Source: Candidatus Portnoybacteria bacterium
GTDB lineage: Bacteria > Patescibacteriota > Minisyncoccia > Portnoybacterales > GWB1-42-6
Reading direction: 5' to 3'
NCBI GenBank assembly: GCA_028688325.1
Contig: JAQTYI010000001.1
Coordinates: 302,620-366,619, forward strand
DNA length: 64,000 nt
How positions within the stretch are numbered: position 1 is the first letter of the stretch; every line of letters starts with the position of its first letter. Shown here one piece after another: positions 8,954 to 57,378 of this stretch. The notes below the pieces were generated by a model, which worked only from the letters and a program-made list of their open reading frames with translations, was not told where the DNA came from and searched no databases. The position numbers and the translations under genes were made by a program.

Positions 8954-9264
8954 TTTTAAAATATTTAAAAATTATTTAAATATACATTCGACCTTTCCTT
9001 CATTGTCTTATTAAAAAAGATTAAAATCCTTCGCGGAGTTTACCCCGATGAACATCGGGGCTCAGGATGACAGAAATGCAAATAATATTTTTTCCGTGCC
9101 GTTATTTTATTTTATAAAGAAAGGGGTGTCAACCCCGTTAGAAGTTTTTTATCCACAGTTCCGAGTATTTAAGTTGAGCCGTAGGCGAAATCGCCCGCCT
9201 GGTTGGTTGATAATAAAATACGGCCGGACTTCTATACGGGGTCAAGCGCCGCGGTTGGGGATAT

Positions 9265-9738
9265 CTATCCTTTCAAGGAATGCGCGCAACAAACGGCTAT
9301 TGCCAGGGCGTCGGCCGCGTCGTCGGGCCGGGGAATCTCCTTTAAATTCAAGATCATTTTGACCATTTGCTGGATTTGGTTCTTTTCCGCCCGGCCGTAG
9401 CCGGTGAGCGCCCGTTTTATCTGCAGCGGCGTGTATTCATAAATTTTCAAACCCTGCTGGGCCGCGGCCAGCAAGATCACACCCCTTGCCTGGCTCACCT
9501 TGATGGCGGTGGTTTGGTTCTTAAAAAAGAAAAGCTCTTCCACTGCCATGATATCCGGCTTGTGCTTTTTGATGAATCTGGTCAGTTGCTTGTGCAAGTC
9601 ATCAAGCCGCGCGGCGGTGCTATCGCCCGTACTGGTCGTAAAGCAGTCATAGCATTTTATAGCTGCTTTCTTGTTTTTGTATTCTATAAGCCCGGCGCCG
9701 ATTCGCGCGGTGCCCGGGTCAATGCCCAAAATCATCAT
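9265..9738 (-). CDS. ruvC: Holliday junction resolvase RuvC
   Basis: MMILGIDPGTARIGAGLIEY..., an RNase H-fold RuvC N-terminus. Adjacent to yebC. Confidence 0.9.
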   Translation of the reverse strand: MMILGIDPGTARIGAGLIEYKNKKAAIKCYDCFTTSTGDSTAARLDDLHKQLTRFIKKHKPDIMAVEELFFFKNQTTAIKVSQARGVILLAAAQQGLKIYEYTPLQIKRALTGYGRAEKNQIQQMVKMILNLKEIPRPDDAADALAIAVCCAHSLKG

Positions 9739-13234: not shown

Positions 13235-13350
13235 GAAATGGCAAATGACTAATTTCCAATGACAAATAAAACCCCAAGCTTAAATGTCAAAAATTTATGA
13301 TTTGACATTCGGTCATTGGTCATTTATTTGTCATTAGTCATTGGGATTTC
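13235..13350. repeat. Family-4 AT-rich repeat array (AATGACAAAT, TTCCAATGAC and ATTGGTCATT dyads)
   Basis: Repeated GTCATT or AATGAC half-sites at roughly 7-11 bp spacing. The same motif architecture recurs at 21395-21530, 38650-38750 and 48893-48960. Confidence 0.6.
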
Positions 13351-34085: not shown

Positions 34086-35039
34086 TTAATTTTGCAGTTG
34101 TTTGTTTATTTGTTTTTTGATTTTTGGCGGGCAATCAATGTCTTGTCTTTTTTTCAAATAGCCGAGCAGAGGGGTTAAGAGCTGGTTAGATATCTTTTTC
34201 TCAATGCCCATGGCGTAGGCGATAATGCCAAAGACCTGTTTTTCGGAAACGGAATTATCCATTTTTGCCCGGCCGATCATTCCGCGAAACCGCCTTATTT
34301 TTTTAGGCGGAATTTTAGGTTTTTTATCAACGATATTTATTCCTGTAATGCGCAAGGCGCCTTTTTTTATTGAACCATAGCGGGTTTTTTCGGGATTGAT
34401 CTTGAATCCAGCTTCTTCCAGCTTCTTGGCGATAATATTCTCAAAGCTTTTTGGTATTTTGACGCTGGAACTGAAAGTCAAGTCATCCACATAACGCGAA
34501 TAGCGCAATCGATGTTCAGCCACCTTCTGGTTGCTAAAAGATAAGTCAATATTCAGCAGATTTGTGGCTCCCAGAAGAGCATTAAATATGGCCAATGAGG
34601 TTGGCGCTCCTTGCGGAAGTTGGTTGCGGAAGGTGGTTAATTTGGTTAGAATCTTGGCCAGTTGCGGCGAAGCGTTCATTATTCTGAAAAACCAGTAAAC
34701 CATTTTATCGTCAACGGTCGGATAAGCGTTCTTTATGTCGATAGTAATAAGGTATTTGCTTTGTTTGTGGACAAGGGCGTTAGTCCGAGCGGATTTTTTG
34801 GCTATTCCGCCATGCGCTTGAGACGGGATGCAAAAAGGCAATTCTTTTAACAAGATTCGCTGAATTTTTTTCAGCGGTTCTTCGGGTGCCGCAATCTCGC
34901 GCTTACTGCCGTCTGATTTTTTCTTGTACCAGACACGATAATGGCTCTTAATGTTTTGTGACAACATTAGTAATTCCGTAGTGTCGAGATCGAACATTTT
35001 AGAAAAATTCTCTAAAGAAATTTTATTTTTCTTTTTCAT
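34086..35039 (-). CDS. Reverse transcriptase, retron-type (317 aa)
   Basis: Reverse transcriptase motifs: A (ITIDIKNAYPTVD), B' (LPQGAPTSLAIFNALL), C (YSRYVDDLTFSS, the YxDD box), D (GFKINPEKT) and an ITG/VTG-like segment (LRITGINIV). Strong Shine-Dalgarno sequence AAGGAGG. Compact retron size. Confidence 0.75.
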   Translation of the reverse strand: MKKKNKISLENFSKMFDLDTTELLMLSQNIKSHYRVWYKKKSDGSKREIAAPEEPLKKIQRILLKELPFCIPSQAHGGIAKKSARTNALVHKQSKYLITIDIKNAYPTVDDKMVYWFFRIMNASPQLAKILTKLTTFRNQLPQGAPTSLAIFNALLGATNLLNIDLSFSNQKVAEHRLRYSRYVDDLTFSSSVKIPKSFENIIAKKLEEAGFKINPEKTRYGSIKKGALRITGINIVDKKPKIPPKKIRRFRGMIGRAKMDNSVSEKQVFGIIAYAMGIEKKISNQLLTPLLGYLKKRQDIDCPPKIKKQINKQLQN

Positions 35040-35045
35040 TTGTTC

Positions 35046-35294
35046 CTCCTTGATAAATGAAAAAACGCGGACGGGCTTCCATGACCCATACTGGGCATGT
35101 GAAGAGAAGCATGGTGAGGTGTCTTTTGGCCGCGATAGCGCAGGGGCTCGTCGCCGGAGCGATAGCGGGCAAAAGACATCTGGGCACGCGTATTGTTACA
35201 TACGCAGAGCTTAATGGTAAGTCAAACTTCTTTCCGCCAGATGCTGGCAGGCCGATGGCTCGCAGAGCCACCTAAGTCAAGCCCGTCCGCGTTT
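35046..35294 (-). ncRNA. Candidate retron msr/msd non-coding RNA locus bounded by perfect 16-bp inverted repeats (a1/a2)
   Basis: AAACGCGGACGGGCTT at 35063-35078 is the exact reverse complement of 35279-35294. The intervening roughly 200 nt is GC-rich with several hairpins. It ends 24 nt before the reverse transcriptase ATG. The ORFs the track places here (35023..35271, 35057..35275) look non-coding. Confidence 0.55.
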
Positions 35295-35398
35295 ATTGTT
35301 AAGGTGCTAAACAAAGATAATTGATAGTAGCTATTTTTATTAAGGAAGTCAAGAAATAAAAAACCCCGCGCTTGATGTTGATGCGCGGGGTCGAGTTT

Positions 35399-35782
35399 CT
35401 AATGCGTGTTGATTATTTCGCCGGCCATTTGCGTGGCTTCGGCGAGAAGCTTTTTGGGAATATCGTCTATCCCGAAGCCATCGCTGTTGGGCGAGGTATA
35501 GATGACTTGCGGGCCCTTGCCGTAATCGGCGAAGGTGATAACAATATCTAGCACGGAAAGGGTGGCGGATTTTTCTCGACAGGACTCCATGATAAGCCGA
35601 ATCTTTTTGTTATGGAGCCGCAGAGAAAGAATATCGCCGCCTTTTTTGTCAAATTCCCTGAACTGGCGAATGGCCTCCGGGCTTATATGGCCGGCTCCTT
35701 CGCCATCGCAATTAGGGCACCGGCCGACTCGTTGGCTGGGATACCGATAACCGCACTTGAGGCAGAACCTATCTTTGCTCAT
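35399..35782 (-). CDS. Zinc-ribbon protein with an acidic C-terminal domain, possibly TOPRIM- or NYN-like. Candidate retron-associated effector
   Basis: CLKC...CPNC zinc ribbon at the N-terminus. C-terminal IRLIMESCRE...LDIVITFADYGKG...SPNSDGFGIDDI with conserved acidic residues. Immediately upstream of the retron locus on the same strand. Confidence 0.4.
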   Translation of the reverse strand: MSKDRFCLKCGYRYPSQRVGRCPNCDGEGAGHISPEAIRQFREFDKKGGDILSLRLHNKKIRLIMESCREKSATLSVLDIVITFADYGKGPQVIYTSPNSDGFGIDDIPKKLLAEATQMAGEIINTH

Positions 35783-35909
35783 AAGACCCTCCTTGTGGGT
35801 GGTATGGGTAGCTGATAAGAACTATATCTGATAGTTATATTATATCAAAACGCTATGAATATGTCAATAGTAGCGCTAAAATACCGGAAAGTGTATAATA
35901 TATCGGTAT

Positions 35910-36221
35910 GCCAGGTAGTAGAAATTCGACAGCGATTATGTTCTATTATGTTTATATTTTAGAGAGTTTAAAGAATAAGGAATTGTATGTCGGTTACACG
36001 GGTGATTTAAACAAGAGAATAAAAGAACATAATCGCGGATTGGTTTTTTCTACAAAACCATATCTGCCTTGGCTAATTATATTTTACGAGGCCTATAGGA
36101 GCGAAAAAGACGCCAGAAGGAGAGAGGCGTATTTAAAGACCAGCCAAGGCAGCAGATTGTTAAAAAGAATGCTTAAAGAATATTTTTATAATAAAGAATA
36201 AGTCGAATTTTCACTACCTGG
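35910..36221. mobile_element. Autonomous-looking member of the MITE family: terminal inverted repeats enclosing a GIY-YIG nuclease gene
   Basis: Left repeat GCCAGGTAGTAGAAATTCGACAGCG. Right repeat GTCGAATTTTCACTACCTGG. The same repeats as the non-coding MITE copies. Confidence 0.75.
35938..36201 (+). CDS. Small GIY-YIG nuclease family protein (87 aa) carried inside the repeat-flanked element
   Basis: MFYYVYILESLKNKELYVGYTGDLNKRIKEHNRG...R...AYLKT...LLKRML. GIY...YVG and catalytic R/E/N spacing. Confidence 0.75.
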   Translation: MFYYVYILESLKNKELYVGYTGDLNKRIKEHNRGLVFSTKPYLPWLIIFYEAYRSEKDARRREAYLKTSQGSRLLKRMLKEYFYNKE

Positions 36222-36348
36222 AATGAAAAACTACGCTTCAGCCAGGGCGGGAAGGGGCAAAACGACCTATCGCACGCCGAGCGTATTTAAATATCAGAAG
36301 TGCCGGAAGGTGGAGAAAATTAAAATGGTTAATAAAAATATTAAACAA

Positions 36349-36486
36349 TTGTCATCCCGGGCCTGACCCGGGATCCAGGCCCTGAAGCCCAACCGTCGCT
36401 AAAGCTTTGGCGAGGCAAGCAAGTTCAGGGCGACAAAAAACCTGGATTCTCCCCGCACTTGATGCGGGGCGGGAATGACAAAATGA
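36349..36486. repeat. Family-1 repeat ending inside the annotated 5' end of the next gene
   Basis: TTGTCATCCCGGGCCTGACCCGGGATCCAGG ... CCCCGCACTTGATGCGGGGCGGGAATGACAAAATGACAA. Confidence 0.8.
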
Positions 36487-48298: not shown

Positions 48299-48490
48299 TG
48301 TCATCCCGCACTTGCCTTGCCCTTCTATAGCTTTTAGCGAAGGAGGGATCGGGATCCAGGTCCTAAACTAAATCCCTCCCAACCTCCCTTTACGGAAAGG
48401 GAGGGGTAAGATTAAATCCACCTCACCCCTCCTTTTATAAAGGAGGGAGTTCCTCCCTTTGAAAAAGGGAGGTTAGGAGGGAGTTTAAAT
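48299..48490. repeat. Composite family-1 plus family-2 repeat block
   Basis: TTGTCATCCCGCACTTG...GGGATCCAGG followed by three family-2 hairpins (CCTCCCTTTACGGAAAGGGAGG and others). Confidence 0.8.
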
Positions 48491-48531: not shown

Positions 48532-48879
48532 TTATTTTCTCGCCATCTCCACTATTTCCTTGAAGGCCTGCGGTTGCATTTGGGCCAGCTGCGACAGGAC
48601 CTTTCGGTCGAGCCCCACCTTCTTTTTGGTCAGTCCTTCGATGAACCGGCTGTAGGTCATGCCCAGTTCGCGCGTGGCCGCGTTTATCTGCAAGTTCCAC
48701 AAGCGGCGGGCGTTGCGTTTCTTTTTGCGCCGGTCCACATAAGCGTGAACCAAAGCGTGCTTGACCGCGTCTTTGGCTGTGCGGTAACGTTTGGAGCGGC
48801 CCCACATATATCCTTTGGCCAGCTTGAATATCTTCCTTCTTTTTTTCTTGGCGCCGACGGCGCGTTTTACTCTTGCCAT
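48532..48879 (-). CDS. rplT: 50S ribosomal protein L20
   Basis: MARVKRAVGAKKKRRKIFKLAKGY..., a canonical L20. Confidence 0.95.
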   Translation of the reverse strand: MARVKRAVGAKKKRRKIFKLAKGYMWGRSKRYRTAKDAVKHALVHAYVDRRKKKRNARRLWNLQINAATRELGMTYSRFIEGLTKKKVGLDRKVLSQLAQMQPQAFKEIVEMARK

Positions 48880-48892
48880 ATTTTTAGTTTAT

Positions 48893-48960
48893 CAATTTCG
48901 AATCTCAATTTTCAATCATTGGTCATTGGAAATTGGTAATTGGAAATTTGGGTTAAGTAT
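48893..48960. repeat. Family-4 repeat in the rpmI-rplT spacer
   Basis: ATCATTGGTCATTGGAAATTGGTAATTGGAAATTTGG. Confidence 0.6.
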
Positions 48961-48961
48961 A

Positions 48962-49153
48962 TTATCTTTCCAGTATCCTTTTGAAAACATCGGTCTGGCC
49001 TTTAGCCATGCTGCGCAGGCCTCGTTTTTGGCGCGACTGATCGCCCGTCTGTTTGGCGTTAAAATGGTTTTGGCGGCTCGGCCGGAAAAGCACTTTGCCC
49101 TTCTTGGTCAGCTTCAATCTTTTGGTCGCCATTTTTATTGTCTTGGTGCTCAT
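48962..49153 (-). CDS. rpmI: 50S ribosomal protein L35
   Basis: MATKRLKLTKKGKVLFR...., an L35 signature. Lies between infC and rplT. Confidence 0.85.
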   Translation of the reverse strand: MSTKTIKMATKRLKLTKKGKVLFRPSRQNHFNAKQTGDQSRQKRGLRSMAKGQTDVFKRILER

Positions 49154-49262: not shown

Positions 49263-49799
49263 TTAACGGGATTTGCTGATTAACATATAAAATCCTCTGG
49301 GTTCTTTGGTGATGGGCTGGTCGATGATCGTCGGAATCTGGATATAATTTTTAAAATCTTCCAATTTTTCTTTGGCGAGGTGGCCGAAGGCCTTTTCTCG
49401 TCCCCGCAAAACTATGGAGATTCTGGCGCGGTCGCCCTTTTCCAAGAATTTCTGCGTTTGGGCCGCTTTCATTTCCAGGTCGTGTTTGGCGATATTGAAG
49501 CTCAGCCGGATATTTTTAATTTCAACCTTATGGGTCTTGGTCATCTCCTTGGCTTTCTTTTCTTTCTGGTACAGGAATTTGCCGTAGTCGATTATCTTGC
49601 AGACCGGCGGAACGGCTTTGTCCGTTATCTCCACCAGGTCCAGCCCCCGATCATACGCCAGGGCCAGCGCGTCGGCGGTTTTCATCACGCCAAGCTGCAC
49701 TCCTTTTTCATCAACCACGCGAACTTCCGCCGCACGGATGAAACCGTTGATGCGATTCTGTGGCTGCCTCGGCTGGTTAAAAAATGGTTTTCTTATCAA
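49263..49799 (-). CDS. infC: Translation initiation factor IF-3
   Basis: INGFIRAAEVRVVDEKG...VCKIIDYGKF..., IF3 N and C domains. Confidence 0.9.
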   Translation of the reverse strand: MIRKPFFNQPRQPQNRINGFIRAAEVRVVDEKGVQLGVMKTADALALAYDRGLDLVEITDKAVPPVCKIIDYGKFLYQKEKKAKEMTKTHKVEIKNIRLSFNIAKHDLEMKAAQTQKFLEKGDRARISIVLRGREKAFGHLAKEKLEDFKNYIQIPTIIDQPITKEPRGFYMLISKSR

Positions 49800-50065
49800 G
49801 GTTTGGGGTTAGTGATTAAATGATTTGCCAGTTGTTTTTTCAAAAATTTTCTGCCCGATCCGCTTTTGAGGAATTTTTCTCTGCCCAGTGCATCAAATTT
49901 ATTCAAATATAATTCCGCGTATATCAATTCCCAGTTATCCTTCTTGCTCGTATACGGGGATTTTTTATATTTATGTTCTTGCAGTCGTTGCTTTAGATTC
50001 GAAGTAAAACCAATATACCAGCTTTTATCATTTTGGTTTTCAAGAATATATACAACGTAATGCAT
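49796..50065 (-). CDS. Small GIY-YIG nuclease family protein (second copy) lodged between the tmRNA 3' end and infC
   Basis: MHYVVYILENQNDKSWYIGFTSNLKQRLQEHKYKK... Start-stop overlap ATGA with infC. Confidence 0.7.
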   Translation of the reverse strand: MHYVVYILENQNDKSWYIGFTSNLKQRLQEHKYKKSPYTSKKDNWELIYAELYLNKFDALGREKFLKSGSGRKFLKKQLANHLITNPKP

Positions 50066-50222
50066 ATTTGACGAAGTTTTACGGGCCGTGGCCCGTGGCG
50101 GGCTTTACGGGCTGCGCCGCGTGATCATGAGCGAAATTAATGATGTTGCCCCGTAAAATAATTTGCTGACGCAAATTACCACGGGGCGCGTTAAATCCTT
50201 CGCTTCGCTCATGATTTTACGC

Positions 50223-50610
50223 GGTGGAGACGGGGAGATTGAACTCCCGTCCAAAAAATATTCTTAAAATACATCTACAAACTTAGCCTGATTTATTTGA
50301 TGGGATCTGAAGCTGTGAATCAGGCAAAAACGTTTCAGACCCTATCCGGTAATTTTTCAATCGCATCCCCCGGAAAGGATACTATCTATTCCGAAAAGAT
50401 TACACCCGGGCTCTGCCTATCGGAAGTCGTCAGGCCGGATGGGTTTTGGGCTATTTTATTAGGCCAGAACCGGAGCATAAGAAGGCGCGAACGCATTCTT
50501 GATGCCTGTCATAAAGTTGACATTTGTTTGTTTGCTGAAAGTTTATCGAGATTTTAGCACACTCGGTTTGCGTATTTTTAAGGACATTTGATGTCGAAAC
50601 TTGCGCCCCC
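50223..50610 (-). ncRNA. ssrA: tmRNA (ssrA), standard one-piece form
   Basis: Minus-strand 5' end GGGGGCGCAAGTTTCGACA, a tRNA-like 5' domain. 3' end GGACGGGAGTTCAATCTCCCCGTCTCCACC, a T-arm plus acceptor that pairs with the 5' end. Internal tag reading frame ...NAFAPSYAPVLA followed by TAATAA. Adjacent to smpB. Confidence 0.65.
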
Positions 50611-50735
50611 CTTCGTTCCGCTTCTTGCCTCGACTCGCCGTCAAGGTGAGGCGGGCGCTCGCTCGGGGTAAACCCCAAGAAGCAAGAAATGAAGCAAAGG
50701 CGAACGCAACTTAATTCAAATTGTAAAAAATAGCA

Positions 50736-50814
50736 TTGTCATCCTGAACCGCCAGTGGGCGGTGAAGGATCTATAGATTCTTCAGTCGCTATGCTCCCTC
50801 AGAATGACAGAAGG
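50736..50814. repeat. Family-1 repeat
   Basis: TTGTCATCCTGAACCGCCAGTGGGCGGTGAAGGATC ... CAGAATGACAGAAGG. Confidence 0.75.
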
Positions 50815-50822
50815 AGCAGATA

Positions 50823-51275
50823 TTATTCAATTTTTCCTCTCACCGCCCGCCGGATGCGCCGGTCCGATTCGCGCTTGCCGATGATATCCCGTTTGTCGAT
50901 GGTCCTTTTGCCGCGGCCCAGGGCGAACTCCAACTTGATTTTACCCGATTTATTATAAACCCGAATAGGCACCAAAGTCAACCCGGTCTGCTTCGTTGAG
51001 CCGATAAGCGAGCGGATCTCGTTCTTATGGAGCAGAAGCTTGCGCGAGCGGGTGGGGCTGTAGTCGGCCGGGACATTGCCCGCTTGGTAGGGGGCGATAG
51101 TGGCGTTTAACAGCCACGCTTCTTCGCCCTTGATGACCACAAAAACCCCTTGGAGCGAAATATGGCCCCCGCGCACGGATTTGACTTCTTGGCCGCTCAA
51201 AACCAGCCCTGCTTCGTAGGTTTCCAAAAAAGCGTAGTCATAGCTGGCTTGCCGGTTGAAAGCGTAGTCGGACAT
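50823..51275 (-). CDS. smpB: SsrA-binding protein SmpB
   Basis: ...IAPYQ...RKLLLHKNEI...TLVPIRVY...KIKLEFALGRGKR..DKR..., an SmpB signature. The ATG abuts the MITE repeat. Confidence 0.9.
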   Translation of the reverse strand: MSDYAFNRQASYDYAFLETYEAGLVLSGQEVKSVRGGHISLQGVFVVIKGEEAWLLNATIAPYQAGNVPADYSPTRSRKLLLHKNEIRSLIGSTKQTGLTLVPIRVYNKSGKIKLEFALGRGKRTIDKRDIIGKRESDRRIRRAVRGKIE

Positions 51276-51408
51276 ACCGGGTAGTGAAAATTTGATATAT
51301 TAATTATTGTTCTATGCACTTGCCAAGTAGTATAAATTTCGGAGGGTATTGAACTATAGTATGCGCTGATATAAGGGATACCCAATCGAATTTCTACTAC
51401 CCGGCATA
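51273..51408. mobile_element. MITE copy g
   Basis: CATACCGGGTAGTGAAAATTTGATAT ... ATCGAATTTCTACTACCCGGCAT. Confidence 0.8.
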
Positions 51409-51416
51409 TTAAGTTT

Positions 51417-51545
51417 ACCCCGTAGTAGAACTTCGATTCGTGTGATTTAATAAGATTTATTAACTTATTTACCTGCCATAATTTGTTTGGCTACTCTTAT
51501 TCTAACCGAAAAACATAAAATATCGAAGTTTCACTACGGGGTTTT
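51417..51545. mobile_element. MITE copy h (divergent subfamily, CCCCG instead of CCGGG termini)
   Basis: ACCCCGTAGTAGAACTTCGAT ... ATCGAAGTTTCACTACGGGGT. Both arms carry the same divergent terminus, so the two ends stay complementary. Confidence 0.7.
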
Positions 51546-51607
51546 ACTTTATCACGATTATTGGCTAAACTAAAGGCAGAGAAAGCGTTTTTAAATCTAT
51601 ATTTTTT

Positions 51608-51812
51608 TTGTCATTCCCGCCTGCTTCGCCAAAGCTCCAGCGAGGCGAGCAAAAGCGGGATCCAGGCCCTATTTGAATTGTCATCCCGCACTTGATGCGG
51701 GATCCAGGTCTTTAAAGTTGTCATCCTGAGCGAAGCGAAGGATCTCTGGCGAATGCCAGATTAGTTGCCCGCATACGCGGGAGATTCCTCGTTGCACTCG
51801 GAATGACAAAGA
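51608..51812. repeat. Three tandem family-1 repeat units upstream of argS
   Basis: TTGTCATTCCCGCC...GGGATCCAGG / TTGTCATCCCGCACTTGATGCGGGATCCAGG / TTGTCATCCTGAGCGAAGCGAAGGATC...GGAATGACAAAG. Confidence 0.8.
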
Positions 51813-51819
51813 ATGATTT

Positions 51820-53442
51820 ATGATCCGTTCCCAAATCCAAAAACTCCTCAACCTTCCCGACGCCGCGATCGACCGGCCGGAAAATCCCGGCTTTGGCGAC
51901 TATTCCACCAACGCGGTTTTGAAATTGGCAAAAAAAGAAGGCAAAAATCCGATGATTTTAGCGCAAGCGTTGGTTCAAAAAATATTGGTGTCTGACACCC
52001 ATATATTTTCCAAAATTGAAGTTGCTTCGCCCGGGTTCATCAATTTCACGCTGTCCAACGAATTTTTCCGCCAACAGGTGGCGGAAATTTTAAAAGCCAA
52101 AGAAAATTACGGCGCAATAAATATCGGCGAAAATAAAAAAGTGCAGGTGGAATTCATTTCCGCCAACCCCACGGGCCCGTTAACGCTGGGCAACGGCCGG
52201 GGCGGATTTTTCGGCGATGTGCTGGCCAATGTGCTGGCGCGCGCCGGTTTTGATGTTAAACGGGAATATTTTGTCAACGACGCGGGTTATCAGGTGGAAG
52301 TGCTGGGTCATTCCGTGCTCAAAGATGAGCAGGCGCAATACAAAGGCGAGTATATCGATAAATTGAACAAAAAATTCATTTGCTGGCTCTGTTCCAAAGA
52401 TCCAAAAAAAGTCGGCCAAAAAGCCGCCAAATATATTTTGGCAAAAATGCTCCAGCCCACCATCAAAGACAGGATGAAAATAAAATTCGATGAATGGGTT
52501 TCGGAAAACTCGTTGCGGCTGTCGGGTGAAACGGATGAAGTTTTGCAAATGCTCAAAGCCAAGAACTTAACCTACGAACAAGACGGCGCCGTGTGGTTTA
52601 AGTCCACCCAATTTGGCGACGATAAAGATCGCGTGCTGATAACTTCCGCCAAAGACGGCAAAAGCGCCGCCGCCACCTACCTTTTGCCGGACGCCGCTTA
52701 TCATTACAAAAAATTCGTCAAAGATAAATTCGATAAAGTCATCAATGTTTGGGGCGCGGATCACCACGGCTATATTTTGCGTTTGCAGGCCGTCAAAAAA
52801 GCCCTGGATATGCCGGGGGAGCTGGAAGTCGTTATCATGCAGCTGGTGCGGCTGATGGTCAAAGGCCAGGAAGTTAAAATGTCCAAGCGCTTGGGGACAT
52901 ATATAACCCTGGATGAATTGCTGGAAGAAATTCCGCTGGATGTGGCGCGATTTTTCTTTTTGATGCGCGCGCCCAACACCCATATGGACTTTGACCTGGA
53001 CCTGGCCAAGGAACAGTCGCAAAAAAATCCGGTCTATTATGTCCAATACGCCTACGCGCGGATCTGCAGTATTCTACGAAAAGCATCGGAAAGTGGTTTC
53101 CCTCCTTCAGGAGGGGTTAGGGGAGATGTTGTATCCGACTATAAGCTACAAGCTAACAGCTATCAGCTACTCTCCCATCCATCAGAATTGGCATTAATCA
53201 AACAACTCATCCGCCTGCCAGAAATCATCGCCGACACCGCCACCGACTATGGTGTCCATCGCCTGCCCCAATACTCCATGGATCTTGTTCGCAGTTTTCA
53301 TAAATTCTACGAGGACTGTAAGGTTATAGATGAGACAAATAAAGATTTAACTGTTGCCCGCTTAGCATTATGCGAGGCGACCAGAATAACCCTCAAGAAT
53401 ACTTTAGACTTGATGGGAATAAGCGCGCCAGAAAAGATGTAA
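51820..53442 (+). CDS. argS: Arginine--tRNA ligase with an in-frame family-2 repeat insertion
   Basis: N-terminal Add-1 domain. HIGH region (SANPTGPLTLGNGRG). KMSKS-like MSKRLG. Anticodon-binding DALR domain. Insert translated as SGFPPSGGVRGDVVSDYKLQANSYQLL. Confidence 0.9.
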   Translation: MIRSQIQKLLNLPDAAIDRPENPGFGDYSTNAVLKLAKKEGKNPMILAQALVQKILVSDTHIFSKIEVASPGFINFTLSNEFFRQQVAEILKAKENYGAINIGENKKVQVEFISANPTGPLTLGNGRGGFFGDVLANVLARAGFDVKREYFVNDAGYQVEVLGHSVLKDEQAQYKGEYIDKLNKKFICWLCSKDPKKVGQKAAKYILAKMLQPTIKDRMKIKFDEWVSENSLRLSGETDEVLQMLKAKNLTYEQDGAVWFKSTQFGDDKDRVLITSAKDGKSAAATYLLPDAAYHYKKFVKDKFDKVINVWGADHHGYILRLQAVKKALDMPGELEVVIMQLVRLMVKGQEVKMSKRLGTYITLDELLEEIPLDVARFFFLMRAPNTHMDFDLDLAKEQSQKNPVYYVQYAYARICSILRKASESGFPPSGGVRGDVVSDYKLQANSYQLLSHPSELALIKQLIRLPEIIADTATDYGVHRLPQYSMDLVRSFHKFYEDCKVIDETNKDLTVARLALCEATRITLKNTLDLMGISAPEKM

Positions 53443-56095: not shown

Positions 56096-56353
56096 ATGAT
56101 TGAAGAAAATAATATTATAAACAAAGACATTTCCGAGCTTAACAAGCGATTGGGAGTAGTTATATCACTTCTTCTGCGTATGACACCAAGTGATAGGCCG
56201 AGTAGAAGCTTGAAGGAGCAGGTAGGGATTTTAGATGATCTTGGTATTCGTCCTCGCGATATAGCCGAAATCTTAGGTCGAACCCAGCCGCATATTAACA
56301 AAGAGCTAGTCGGGCTTCGTAGAGAAAAGCACAAAAAACATGAGCAAAAGTAA
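56096..56353 (+). CDS. Small helix-turn-helix protein, sigma-70 region-4-like (paralog A of six)
   Basis: ...LGVVISLLLRM...GIRPRDIAEILGRTQPHINKELVGLRR. Confidence 0.5.
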   Translation: MIEENNIINKDISELNKRLGVVISLLLRMTPSDRPSRSLKEQVGILDDLGIRPRDIAEILGRTQPHINKELVGLRREKHKKHEQK

Positions 56354-56588
56354 AAAGAATAAGCTATTTATTGATAAAGACTTGTCGCTTGCGCGCCTGG
56401 ATGCATTACTGGTCCTCTTAAGTGAACTATTATGTCAGCTTTCGAAAGATAAAGCATCTGCGAAAGGCGCTAGAGAAAAATCGGCTGTAATTCTTGTGTC
56501 TGGCGGAATGACGCAGGAGCGAGCCGCCAAAGTATTAGGTATGCAGAAAAAAACAGTCGTTGAAGCAATTAAAAATATAAAAATATGA
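56340..56588 (+). CDS. Small helix-turn-helix protein, sigma-70 region-4-like (paralog B)
   Basis: LARLDALLVLLSELL...GMTQERAAKVLGMQKKTVVEAIKNIK. Overlaps paralog A by 14 nt. Confidence 0.5.
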   Translation: MSKSKKNKLFIDKDLSLARLDALLVLLSELLCQLSKDKASAKGAREKSAVILVSGGMTQERAAKVLGMQKKTVVEAIKNIKI

Positions 56589-56809
56589 AAGACAAAAATC
56601 AAGATTTATTTGAACAAGTCTCAAAAAAGTTGAGTGCCCTAATAGCACTTTCGTTTATTGAAGATGTTTCAAAGATGACAAATGAAAAGGGCGTAGAAGT
56701 GCTTAACCGCTTTGGGTTAAGCAATCAAGATATCGCGAATATTATAGGCACCACTAAAAAAACAGTCGAGGTATTAAAAAGTCGTATTAAAAATAAAAAA
56801 ATAAAATAA
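56585..56809 (+). CDS. Small helix-turn-helix protein, sigma-70 region-4-like (paralog C)
   Basis: LSALIALSFI...GLSNQDIANIIGTTKKTVEVLKSRIKNKK, the closest of the six to the sigma region 4.2 consensus. Confidence 0.55.
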   Translation: MKDKNQDLFEQVSKKLSALIALSFIEDVSKMTNEKGVEVLNRFGLSNQDIANIIGTTKKTVEVLKSRIKNKKIK

Positions 56810-56810
56810 T

Positions 56811-57014
56811 ATGGATAATAAAATTATTAACGAGCTTAAAAATTTAAATGAGGTCGTAAAAGACTTATTTATATTTCTTATGTGTAGAGAGGGATTTGGT
56901 CAAAAGGAAATCAGAACTGTCTTTGGAAAAATAGATTGTGCAAGGATAACGAAAATTGCCTCGGGTATTAAAAAGGTTGCTGCGCAGAAAATTAAAAATG
57001 ATAAGAAAAAATAA
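56811..57014 (+). CDS. Small helix-turn-helix protein, sigma-70 region-4-like (paralog D)
   Basis: LNEVVKDLFIFLMCREGFGQKEIRTVFGKIDCARITKIASGIKK. Confidence 0.5.
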   Translation: MDNKIINELKNLNEVVKDLFIFLMCREGFGQKEIRTVFGKIDCARITKIASGIKKVAAQKIKNDKKK

Positions 57015-57015
57015 T

Positions 57016-57204
57016 ATGGCAAAAACAATTGGTAGACATCCCTTGGATAGAAAATTAAATAGAATTATTTATTTGCTTGAATCTCTTCTTGCTTTAGAGT
57101 TTAACCGAACCAATCTTGATCGTAATAAAATTCGTGCTCGTTTAAGTATTGATAAAGCAAAAGTAAATAAAATACTGGATGGTATCAAAAGATCGAATAA
57201 TTAA
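57016..57204 (+). CDS. Small helix-turn-helix protein (paralog E). Start moved to the ATG just after the stop of paralog D
   Basis: MAKTIGRHPLDRKLNRIIYLLESLLALEFNRTNLDRNKIRARLSIDKAKVNKILDGIKRS. Confidence 0.45.
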   Translation: MAKTIGRHPLDRKLNRIIYLLESLLALEFNRTNLDRNKIRARLSIDKAKVNKILDGIKRSNN

Positions 57205-57216
57205 AATAATGAAAAT

Positions 57217-57378
57217 ATGGACAAAAAAATAATAAAACTGCTTGAAGACATTAAAAAACTCATGATTCTTAATCTTGTTGAGCGCGGTATACAGGCGAGC
57301 GCCGTTGCTGGCATACTAAAAGTTACCAAGGGAACACTTAGTAAGATGGTGCCAGCTAGAAAGATTAAGAAGGGTTAA
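57217..57378 (+). CDS. Small helix-turn-helix protein (paralog F, 53 aa, below the ORF-track cutoff)
   Basis: Hand-translated MDKKIIKLLEDIKKLMILNLVERGIQASAVAGILKVTKGTLSKMVPARKIKKG*. Confidence 0.4.
   Translation: MDKKIIKLLEDIKKLMILNLVERGIQASAVAGILKVTKGTLSKMVPARKIKKG

Follow-up and report, generated by a model that had tools for sequence, protein, structure and literature searches.

Two likely families of miniature elements with small GIY-YIG nuclease genes at the smpB-ssrA-infC locus of a Candidatus Portnoybacteria genome

Introduction

Slx1 is described in two reports as a structure-specific nuclease that cuts branched and hairpin DNA (PMC8287910, PMC4407285). A 2006 survey of the GIY-YIG superfamily presented the bacterial Slx1-like proteins as minimal stand-alone domains, assigned them no role and did not describe mobility (PMC1564403). 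Structures of this bacterial family have been solved since 2005, and its function is still unassigned. Here, we have analyzed a stretch of 64,000 nt from a Candidatus Portnoybacteria genome (GCA_028688325.1, contig JAQTYI010000001.1, positions 302,620 to 366,619; hereafter the window), in which a small GIY-YIG gene (GIY1) lies between ssrA, the gene of transfer-messenger RNA (tmRNA), and infC, and a transposable element of the miniature inverted-repeat type (MITE) lies on the start codon of smpB. A second small GIY-YIG gene (GIY2) is found elsewhere in the window. A preliminary description had called this tmRNA locus a hotspot for mobile elements. On the basis of comparison with relatives and metagenome contigs (denoted by L numbers), it seems likely that the smpB-ssrA-infC region has been colonized by two unrelated families of miniature elements, each encoding only a GIY-YIG nuclease of the Slx1/UPF0213 type, in addition to ordinary palindromic repeats. 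A search that covered part of the open-access literature brought up no account of GIY-YIG elements that have terminal repeats and target duplications, nor of targeting to start codons or of GIY-YIG cassettes placed at the ends of tRNA or tmRNA genes.

A GIY-YIG cassette at the ssrA 3' end

GIY1 is an 89-aa stand-alone nuclease gene of the Slx1/UPF0213 type at 49796-50065 on the minus strand (Pfam PF01541, 56.6 bits; cutoff 22.6). As had been noticed before, its TGA stop codon overlapped the TTG start of the infC open reading frame (ORF) in the sequence TTGA. The whole cassette (50224-49796, minus strand) consisted of nested hairpin units followed by this ORF. The outer unit (108 nt, CCGCGTAAAAT-stem...stem-ATCACGCGG) occupied 50117-50224 on the minus strand, and its first bases, CCG, took the CCA position of the tmRNA 3' end. 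The inverted repeats reported earlier immediately 3' of ssrA (CGCGTGATCATGAGCGAA / TTCGCTCATGATTTTACGCG) are the arms of this 108-nt hairpin. An inner unit (CCCCGTAAAAT..CCACGGGG; 50149-50186, plus strand) was nested in the outer loop in the opposite orientation, and the ORF leader (50066-50116, minus strand) contained two further CGTAAA motifs, one of which belonged to a minimal unit, GCCCGTAAAGCCCGCCACGGGC (about 50112-50091). The feet of the units were conserved (NNNCGTAAA ... CACGNNN) and their stems were variable. The 160-nt spacer between ssrA and the ORF had a predicted DNA fold of -40.9 kcal/mol (z = -6.0), and none of 200 shuffled sequences was equally stable. The segment from ssrA to infC contained no integrase, and the tmRNA 3' end was not repeated in the window. 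The possibility that CGTAAAA represents a dispersed repeat family of the window could be ruled out, as the motif clustered in the cassette only. A 1.7-kb Logan contig (L035) was identical to the window across GIY1-infC.

Distribution of GIY1-type cassettes

The nearest GIY1 homologs in a database of 5.8 billion proteins (86, 78, 74 and 69% identity) all lay at the same smpB-ssrA-GIY-infC-rpmI-rplT site, which would fit an ordinary, vertically inherited host gene of an ssrA-infC operon, such as a nuclease acting with tmRNA, tRNA or initiation factor 3 (IF3), with patchiness caused by loss. The overlap with the infC start, the intact catalytic residues and a bacterial Slx1-like domain fused to a TrmH tRNA methyltransferase (PMC1564403) point in the same direction. 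Nevertheless, the gene was missing between ssrA and infC in the syntenic loci L003, L004 and L006, where the gap was roughly 15-90 nt, and the identities of the GIY proteins conflicted with those of the host genes. GIY identity to the window protein was 86% in L056, 78% in L057, 56% in L002 and 42% in L001, but 74% in L061 and 70% in L198; L003 had no GIY gene. By host proteins, the window, L056, L057, L002 and L001 formed a group at 67-95% identity, with L003 at 59-71% and L061 and L198 at 38-53%. L002 and L001 had infC at 83% and 80% and ribosomal protein L20 (rplT) at 86-88% identity to the window, compared with 41-45% for infC, 49-51% for smpB and 44-46% for rplT in L061 and L198.

In the vertically related pairs window-L056 and window-L057, GIY changed at about the rate of infC and rplT. 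Since GIY keeps pace with these genes in close pairs, the values of 74/70% and 56/42% are incompatible with simple descent. They indicate transfer from lineage to lineage and replacement at one site, and the GIY gene of L001 represents a different lineage from window GIY1. Taken together with cassettes of the same type after unrelated tRNAs, in tandem arrays that vary between samples and once without a tRNA (see below), this makes the host-gene explanation improbable. It had been proposed that conservation of the gene in synteny in all relatives would argue against mobility. This held for the closest GIY relatives, all of which were syntenic, whereas the gene tree disagreed with the host genes and three syntenic loci lacked the gene, in agreement with mobility. 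We consider it likely that GIY1-type cassettes at ssrA have been gained, replaced and transferred between distant Patescibacteria. It was also observed that infC in L061 and L198 started with ATGCGTAAAAG, which shares the CGTAAAA core of the left hairpin units; this may be a recombination core or chance.

Each GIY1-type ORF was preceded by two to four hairpin units of the form NNN-CGTAAA(A)-stem-loop-stem-(Y)CACG-NNN, with conserved feet and with stems that were unrelated between units but complementary within them; the units occurred in either orientation and were sometimes nested. A search for this signature in 1.31 Mb of Patescibacteria DNA gave 53 hits, 52 of them directly upstream of GIY1-type ORFs. 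It should be noted that the search demanded a stem, and the weight of this result lies in the co-location and the conserved feet. The cassette of hairpins and ORF followed a tRNA or tmRNA 3' end in 9 of 10 contexts, the sole exception being L069, where it occurred without a tRNA. Its first unit started at a CC(A) position, which belonged to the tmRNA in six genomes (window, L002, L056, L057, L061 and L198), to a tRNA in L196 and L199, and to a duplicated tRNA-Gln 3' fragment in L063. The right boundary of the cassette was always 0-11 nt from the start of the next gene. Two further loci had been retrieved for unrelated reasons. In L170, a GIY cassette of the L001 type lay directly after the tmRNA (9050-9620), and its boundary was formed by a direct repeat of 11 nt from the 3' end of this RNA (CCGTCTCCAC), which resembles an attachment-site duplication; in L101, another small GIY gene lay directly after tRNA-Gln. 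In L063-L068, up to three different small GIY genes surrounded one tRNA-Gln (about 1160-2800 in L063), 5' and 3' tRNA fragments were duplicated, and the number of GIY genes varied between samples. Sequence context of this kind suggests that GIY1-type cassettes land at tRNA and tmRNA 3' ends, which we regard as probable.

An inverted-repeat family on start codons

The MITE on the smpB start codon is 136 bp long (51273-51408, minus strand), with a core at 51277-51404 (CCGGGTAGT..ACTACCCGG) between direct TATG repeats (CATA on the plus strand) at 51273-51276 and 51405-51408. The smpB ATG (51275-51273) lies inside this 4-bp duplication. The earlier observation that smpB starts on a terminal repeat was therefore accurate, in that the terminal CAT of the element supplies the ATG. 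The features expected of a MITE were found: 20-nt terminal repeats, 4-nt direct flanks, nine copies of the family in the window, where no chance matches to the repeat are expected, and absence of the element from L001, L002 and L003, with an empty smpB site kept in L001. A third, internal repeat-like copy (CCGAAATTTATACTACTTGGCA, 51320-51345) pairs with one arm in the predicted DNA fold, and a short and a long form may be combined in this element.

A second copy lies at 51418-51541 on the minus strand, with arms CCCCGTAGT(GA/AG)AACTTCGAT. It had been regarded as a degenerate MITE. The copy is present, but it is not simply degenerate, because its arms match each other except for the AG/GA dinucleotide and have three private substitutions in common. 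Its flanks (AAAA/TAAA) indicate that it inserted not on the start codon but 8 nt upstream. Together with the matching arms, they rule out the idea of an older insertion at a regenerated smpB TATG.

The family also includes an ORF-bearing element of 319 bp (35907-36225, plus strand), which consists of a 4-nt flank, a 20-nt inverted repeat, 7 nt, the GIY2 ORF, a 20-nt inverted repeat and a 4-nt flank. GIY2 (35938-36201, plus strand; 87 aa, PF01541 at 60.3 bits) has a stop codon that abuts the right repeat, and the ATG in the left flank, at 35908, is in frame with the ORF. The smpB MITE is probably an ORF-less form of this element, judging by the shared repeats. The GIY1 and GIY2 proteins were 36% identical. 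The former suggestion that the small GIY-YIG genes belong to more than one lineage was supported, with different repeats in each; three lineages can be distinguished. At least 6 of the 8 window copies with paired repeats sat on start codons. Genes starting on a flank ATG and confirmed by Pfam encoded KhpB-like, DHH, S20, SLOG, ThiI-like and SmpB proteins, with domains beginning at residues 4-30. A putative 47-aa ORF without a Pfam match (36223-36366) also started on the terminal ATG of the GIY2 element. About 0.9 kb from this element, at 34086-35782, a reverse-transcriptase ORF (Pfam RVT_1, 317 aa) was found beside a 127-aa zinc-ribbon-like ORF; this might represent a retron, the remnant of a group II intron or a defense-associated reverse transcriptase.

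About 40 GIY2 homologs, when called from the upstream ATG, begin with MPGS(R/E)NSTAIM, the translation of ATG-CCAGGTAGT(AG/GA)AAATTCGAC, that is, of the repeat itself. This common start implies DNA-level conservation of the repeat throughout a family of 70-88% identity, within which hundreds of GIY2 homologs have kept the same repeats. In L036 and L046, TATG was followed by repeat, GIY gene, repeat and a second TATG, at whose ATG the downstream gene started. A repeat scan of metagenome contigs gave at least 107 non-redundant elements with paired arms, which fell into three classes by length (61-90, 113-157 and 297-363 bp); the counts that follow hold among the matches listed (L075-L194). Perfect 4-nt direct flanks were present in 73 of the 107 elements, 50 of these being TATG. 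Almost all elements (105/107) combined one AG arm with one GA arm at positions 10-11, so that any hairpin form holds an A.C and a G.T mispair, and all other arm positions covary. Substitutions private to one element were shared by its two arms far above chance (25 observed versus about 7 expected at position 17). Conservation in the 81 copies compared was confined to the arms.

When elements with an xATG duplication were excised in silico, 54 of 58 occupied a start-like ATG, defined by 60 or more open codons downstream and no more than 30 in frame upstream, and none was internal to a gene; the background of start-like sites was 11% for all TATG sites and 40% if only coding sites were removed (P = 3e-17). 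The AG arm faced the gene in 51 of the 54 (P = 1e-12). In ORF-bearing copies, the nuclease gene ran in the same direction as the target gene, and its frame matched that of the upstream duplicated ATG. The sequence information of the target was limited to T-ATG, some CC after it and an A/T-rich upstream region. On the basis of these data, the MITE family appears to land on start codons in a fixed orientation with a 4-bp duplication, mostly of TATG, and we think that this is likely to be correct.

A role of the MITEs as an outward promoter source was rejected, since conservation is confined to the arms and the promoter-like hits found at the locus equaled shuffle expectation. Translational coupling through a short ORF from the upstream ATG was rejected as well, the stops being scattered and the frame random. 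Leaderless-gene targeting may be kept as an idea, but a weak one: a -10-like hexamer 6-9 nt upstream of the ATG was seen in only 19 of 52 targets among the matches listed. A scan of viral contigs for the inverted repeat gave a single match, a GG variant with no partner arm, which was judged to be due to chance.

Inverted repeats with a target duplication are the signature of DDE-type transposition, and we know of no GIY-YIG transposase. A conventional transposase encoded elsewhere could move the MITEs and longer elements, with the GIY-YIG ORF as a cargo, addiction or defense gene; the 64 kb examined out of roughly 789 kb and the lack of a DNA-binding domain in the nuclease leave room for this. 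We consider it unlikely, because the GIY2 ORF fills its element exactly, reads in frame with the duplicated ATG and has retained the same repeats in its hundreds of relatives. In addition, no transposase adjoined any copy examined (L036 and L046 among them), no recognized transposase (DDE, DEDD, HUH, Ser or Tyr) was detected in the long form, whose sole ORF is the nuclease, and the cutting of branched and hairpin DNA attributed to Slx1, the nearest structural relative, matches the covarying arms.

Properties of the two nucleases

GIY1 and GIY2 were predicted to be minimal GIY-YIG domains with basic C-terminal helices. AlphaFold models (pLDDT of 90.7 and 87.3, respectively) had the order beta-beta-alpha-beta-alpha-alpha-alpha. 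Five residues (Y6, G19, R27, H31 and E63) were invariant in 60 GIY1-type sequences and all were present in window GIY1. In 44 GIY2-type sequences, Y4, R27, H31 and E63 were invariant and Y6, Y17 and G19 nearly so; window GIY2 has all of them. The nearest solved structures were 1ZG2 (UPF0213 protein BH0048) and the Slx1 nuclease domain, and I-TevI was distant (rank 32). Against TIGR01453, both proteins scored 20-21 bits, below its cutoff of 56, and they comprise the catalytic domain only.

The tmRNA locus and its other repeats

A one-piece tmRNA had been identified by hand at 50223-50610 on the minus strand. The Rfam model RF00023 placed ssrA at 50222-50610, one base different, as a full-length match (112.8 bits versus a gathering score of 47; E = 3e-43; model positions 1-374), with a tag conserved in relatives. 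ARAGORN called no tmRNA in the window, a false negative given the Rfam match. It likewise made no call in the clade, although the tmRNAs of the window, L001 and L002 scored 113-120 bits with Rfam, and it did detect the tmRNA of L170. The tag frame VNFMTGIKNAFAPSYAPVLA was located at 50521-50462 (minus strand), assuming resumption at GUC as in the Rfam alignment, the resume codon being not certain; it is followed by the stop codons TAA TAA (50461-50456, minus strand). The frame end ...NAFAPSYAPVLA-TAA-TAA proposed before can be read in the window, and the frame is conserved as protein in L001, L002, L056, L057 and L061, where it ends in ...SYAPVLA, ...AYAPVLA or ...AFAPVVA.

The gene for the tmRNA partner protein, smpB (50823-51275, minus strand; Pfam SmpB, 166.7 bits, residues 5-146), lies 212 nt upstream of ssrA. 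On the other side, infC (49263-49799, minus strand) was assigned to IF3 by Pfam IF3_N and IF3_C and by synteny; its TTG start is kept in relatives, and it is the first gene of an operon with rpmI (48962-49153) and rplT (48532-48879). Including argS, whose start is at 51820, the order argS <- smpB -> ssrA -> infC -> rpmI -> rplT was common to the relatives retrieved via infC.

Other repeats at the locus belong to a palindromic family, here family 1, with 26 TGTCATYCY termini across the window. One element (TGTCATTC...GGATGACA, 50735-50811), with two such termini, was found in the smpB-ssrA spacer. Four termini, forming three or four small palindromic units, lay between the MITEs and argS (51607-51813), where three repeats had been noted upstream of smpB. 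Farther away, CCCTCC..GGGAGG hairpins 3' of rplT (48368-48486) form another repeat family of the operon region, and a copy of a ATTGGTCATTGG-type repeat occurred in the rpmI-rplT spacer (48918-48957); paired copies of this type were seen at 13236/13333, 21387/21477 and 38654/38715. An AT-rich region at 56340-57378 contained an array of small ORFs (53-82 aa), each after a ATTAAAAAT..AATATG motif, with a spacing of about 200-226 nt.

The hotspot proposal received partial support. The locus accounts for 8.4% of the intergenic DNA of the window and contains 2 of the 9 MITEs (P = 0.18) and 6 of the 26 family-1 termini (P = 0.02, uncorrected and from non-independent sites). Within the window, the evidence for enrichment is weak, and repeats are not clearly more abundant here than in other spacers. 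On the other hand, comparison across genomes shows the ssrA 3' end as a recurrent landing site, where three lineages occur and where gain, loss and replacement are seen. The view that the MITE and the repeats of family 1 single out this locus was not supported: family-1 units are common all over the window, and the MITE sits on the smpB ATG because its family occupies start codons everywhere.

The weak enrichment also bears on another reading, namely that the repeats of the locus are selected host sequences with regulatory or structural roles (terminators, processing sites or 5' leaders) and that their clustering at the tmRNA is due to chance. The hairpins do sit where a signal for tmRNA 3' processing or termination would be expected, and promoter-like hits were not above chance. 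However, no terminator-like site was found in 49700-51900, copies precede unrelated genes, the argS-smpB and smpB-ssrA spacers differ in repeat content between close relatives, and host signals would not explain perfect direct flanks in most of the paired elements listed or the empty site in L001. We regard this reading as very improbable.

A possible mechanism

If both families are mobile, their steps might be as follows. The GIY1-type cassette would insert at the CC(A) of the tmRNA 3' end and end on the infC start codon, whereas the MITE family would insert on a start codon with a 4-bp duplication, usually of TATG. In an ORF-bearing copy, the nuclease frame (MPGSENSTAIM...) is open from the upstream copy of the ATG; the element would take over the start signals of the host gene and presumably be expressed from this captured start, while the host gene would keep the downstream ATG. 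GIY1 would be expressed by read-through from ssrA and be translationally coupled to infC. The nuclease might be structure-specific like Slx1 and cut the hairpin or cruciform of its own repeats at the foot, and this cut would drive movement. More tentatively, with somewhat less than even confidence, we suggest that the 87-aa Slx1-like GIY-YIG protein itself mobilizes a previously unrecognized class of prokaryotic DNA transposon, recognizing the hairpin or cruciform of the covarying 20-nt arms with their obligatory A.C/G.T mispair, inserting on start codons with a TATG duplication and using the captured start codon of the host gene to express itself, and that a sister class with arrays of hairpin units targets tRNA and tmRNA genes at their CCA ends. 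If true, these elements of ~0.3 kb would be among the smallest that carry their own enzyme.

Some observations weigh against this explanation of the two families. Characterized GIY-YIG enzymes (I-TevI, Eco29kI and Hpy188I) leave overhangs of 1-2 nt, and a 4-bp duplication needs 4 nt. The proteins, of 87-89 aa, have no DNA-binding domain, and the sequence information of the target does not explain why ORF-less copies occur specifically on start codons. For the copies in the window, neither activity nor an excision product nor polymorphism within one population was observed, and a transposase could be encoded elsewhere in the 789-kb genome. For GIY1 in particular, the cassette was syntenic in all closest relatives and may therefore be immobile now in the window genome, it had no recognizable right-end repeat in the window, and the contexts sampled were few, with closest relatives that are not mutually independent.

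Should our inference hold, the stand-alone bacterial Slx1-like GIY-YIG proteins would gain a role as selfish nucleases of miniature mobile elements. Two unusually precise targeting rules would be involved. One concerns tRNA-like genes at their CCA end, the other protein genes at their start codon, where polarity is fixed and the ATG is captured in frame. The latter rule raises the testable question of how DNA is recognized at translation starts. It would also mean that many Patescibacteria genes are annotated with wrong starts, or that N-terminal extensions (MPGSENSTAI) are translated repeats. For this streamlined genome, comparison with relatives shows that the ssrA-infC junction is a recurrent landing site.

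Comparison with known systems

The elements share properties with several described systems. Like the seg genes of phage T4 and I-TevI, GIY1 is a small, apparently selfish nuclease gene wedged between host genes, and like homing genes it is patchily present at a single conserved site (the 3' end of ssrA) and has a gene tree in conflict with that of the host. Homing enzymes differ in having a large DNA-binding domain, no terminal repeats and no target duplications. Genomic islands and prophages at ssrA and tRNA 3' ends also use the acceptor or CCA end as a landing site, and the 11-nt repeat of the tmRNA 3' end in L170 recalls them; here, there is no integrase, the insert is 0.4 kb instead of many kb, and the window copy has no duplicated 3' end.

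REP/RAYT and IS200/IS605 systems also combine a nuclease gene with short, imperfect hairpins. The feet of these hairpins are conserved, whereas their stems vary; either orientation is found, nesting can occur, and insertion is strand- and orientation-specific beside a 4-nt target. They use HUH Y1 transposases and make no target duplication, whereas the present elements have a GIY-YIG gene and, in the MITE family, 4-bp direct flanks; no HUH domain was detected in the element proteins of the window, to which Pfam assigned GIY-YIG and related models only. Bacterial MITEs derived from insertion sequences (for example, Correia) resemble the MITE family in that they measure 60-150 bp, have terminal inverted repeats and a target duplication, are present in many copies and share their ends with a longer partner element. 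The partner here encodes a GIY-YIG nuclease and not a known transposase, and start-codon sites, fixed polarity and arms differing by one AG/GA dinucleotide set the present family apart.

The closest proteins in sequence and fold are those of UPF0213 (1ZG2 BH0048 and 1YWL EF2693) and eukaryotic Slx1 (E 1e-5, Foldseek probability 1.0), which have in common with GIY1 and GIY2 a minimal domain of ~90 residues and conserved Tyr, Tyr, Arg, His and Glu positions. In contrast with UPF0213, the genes described here come with dedicated repeats, target duplications and specific insertion sites.

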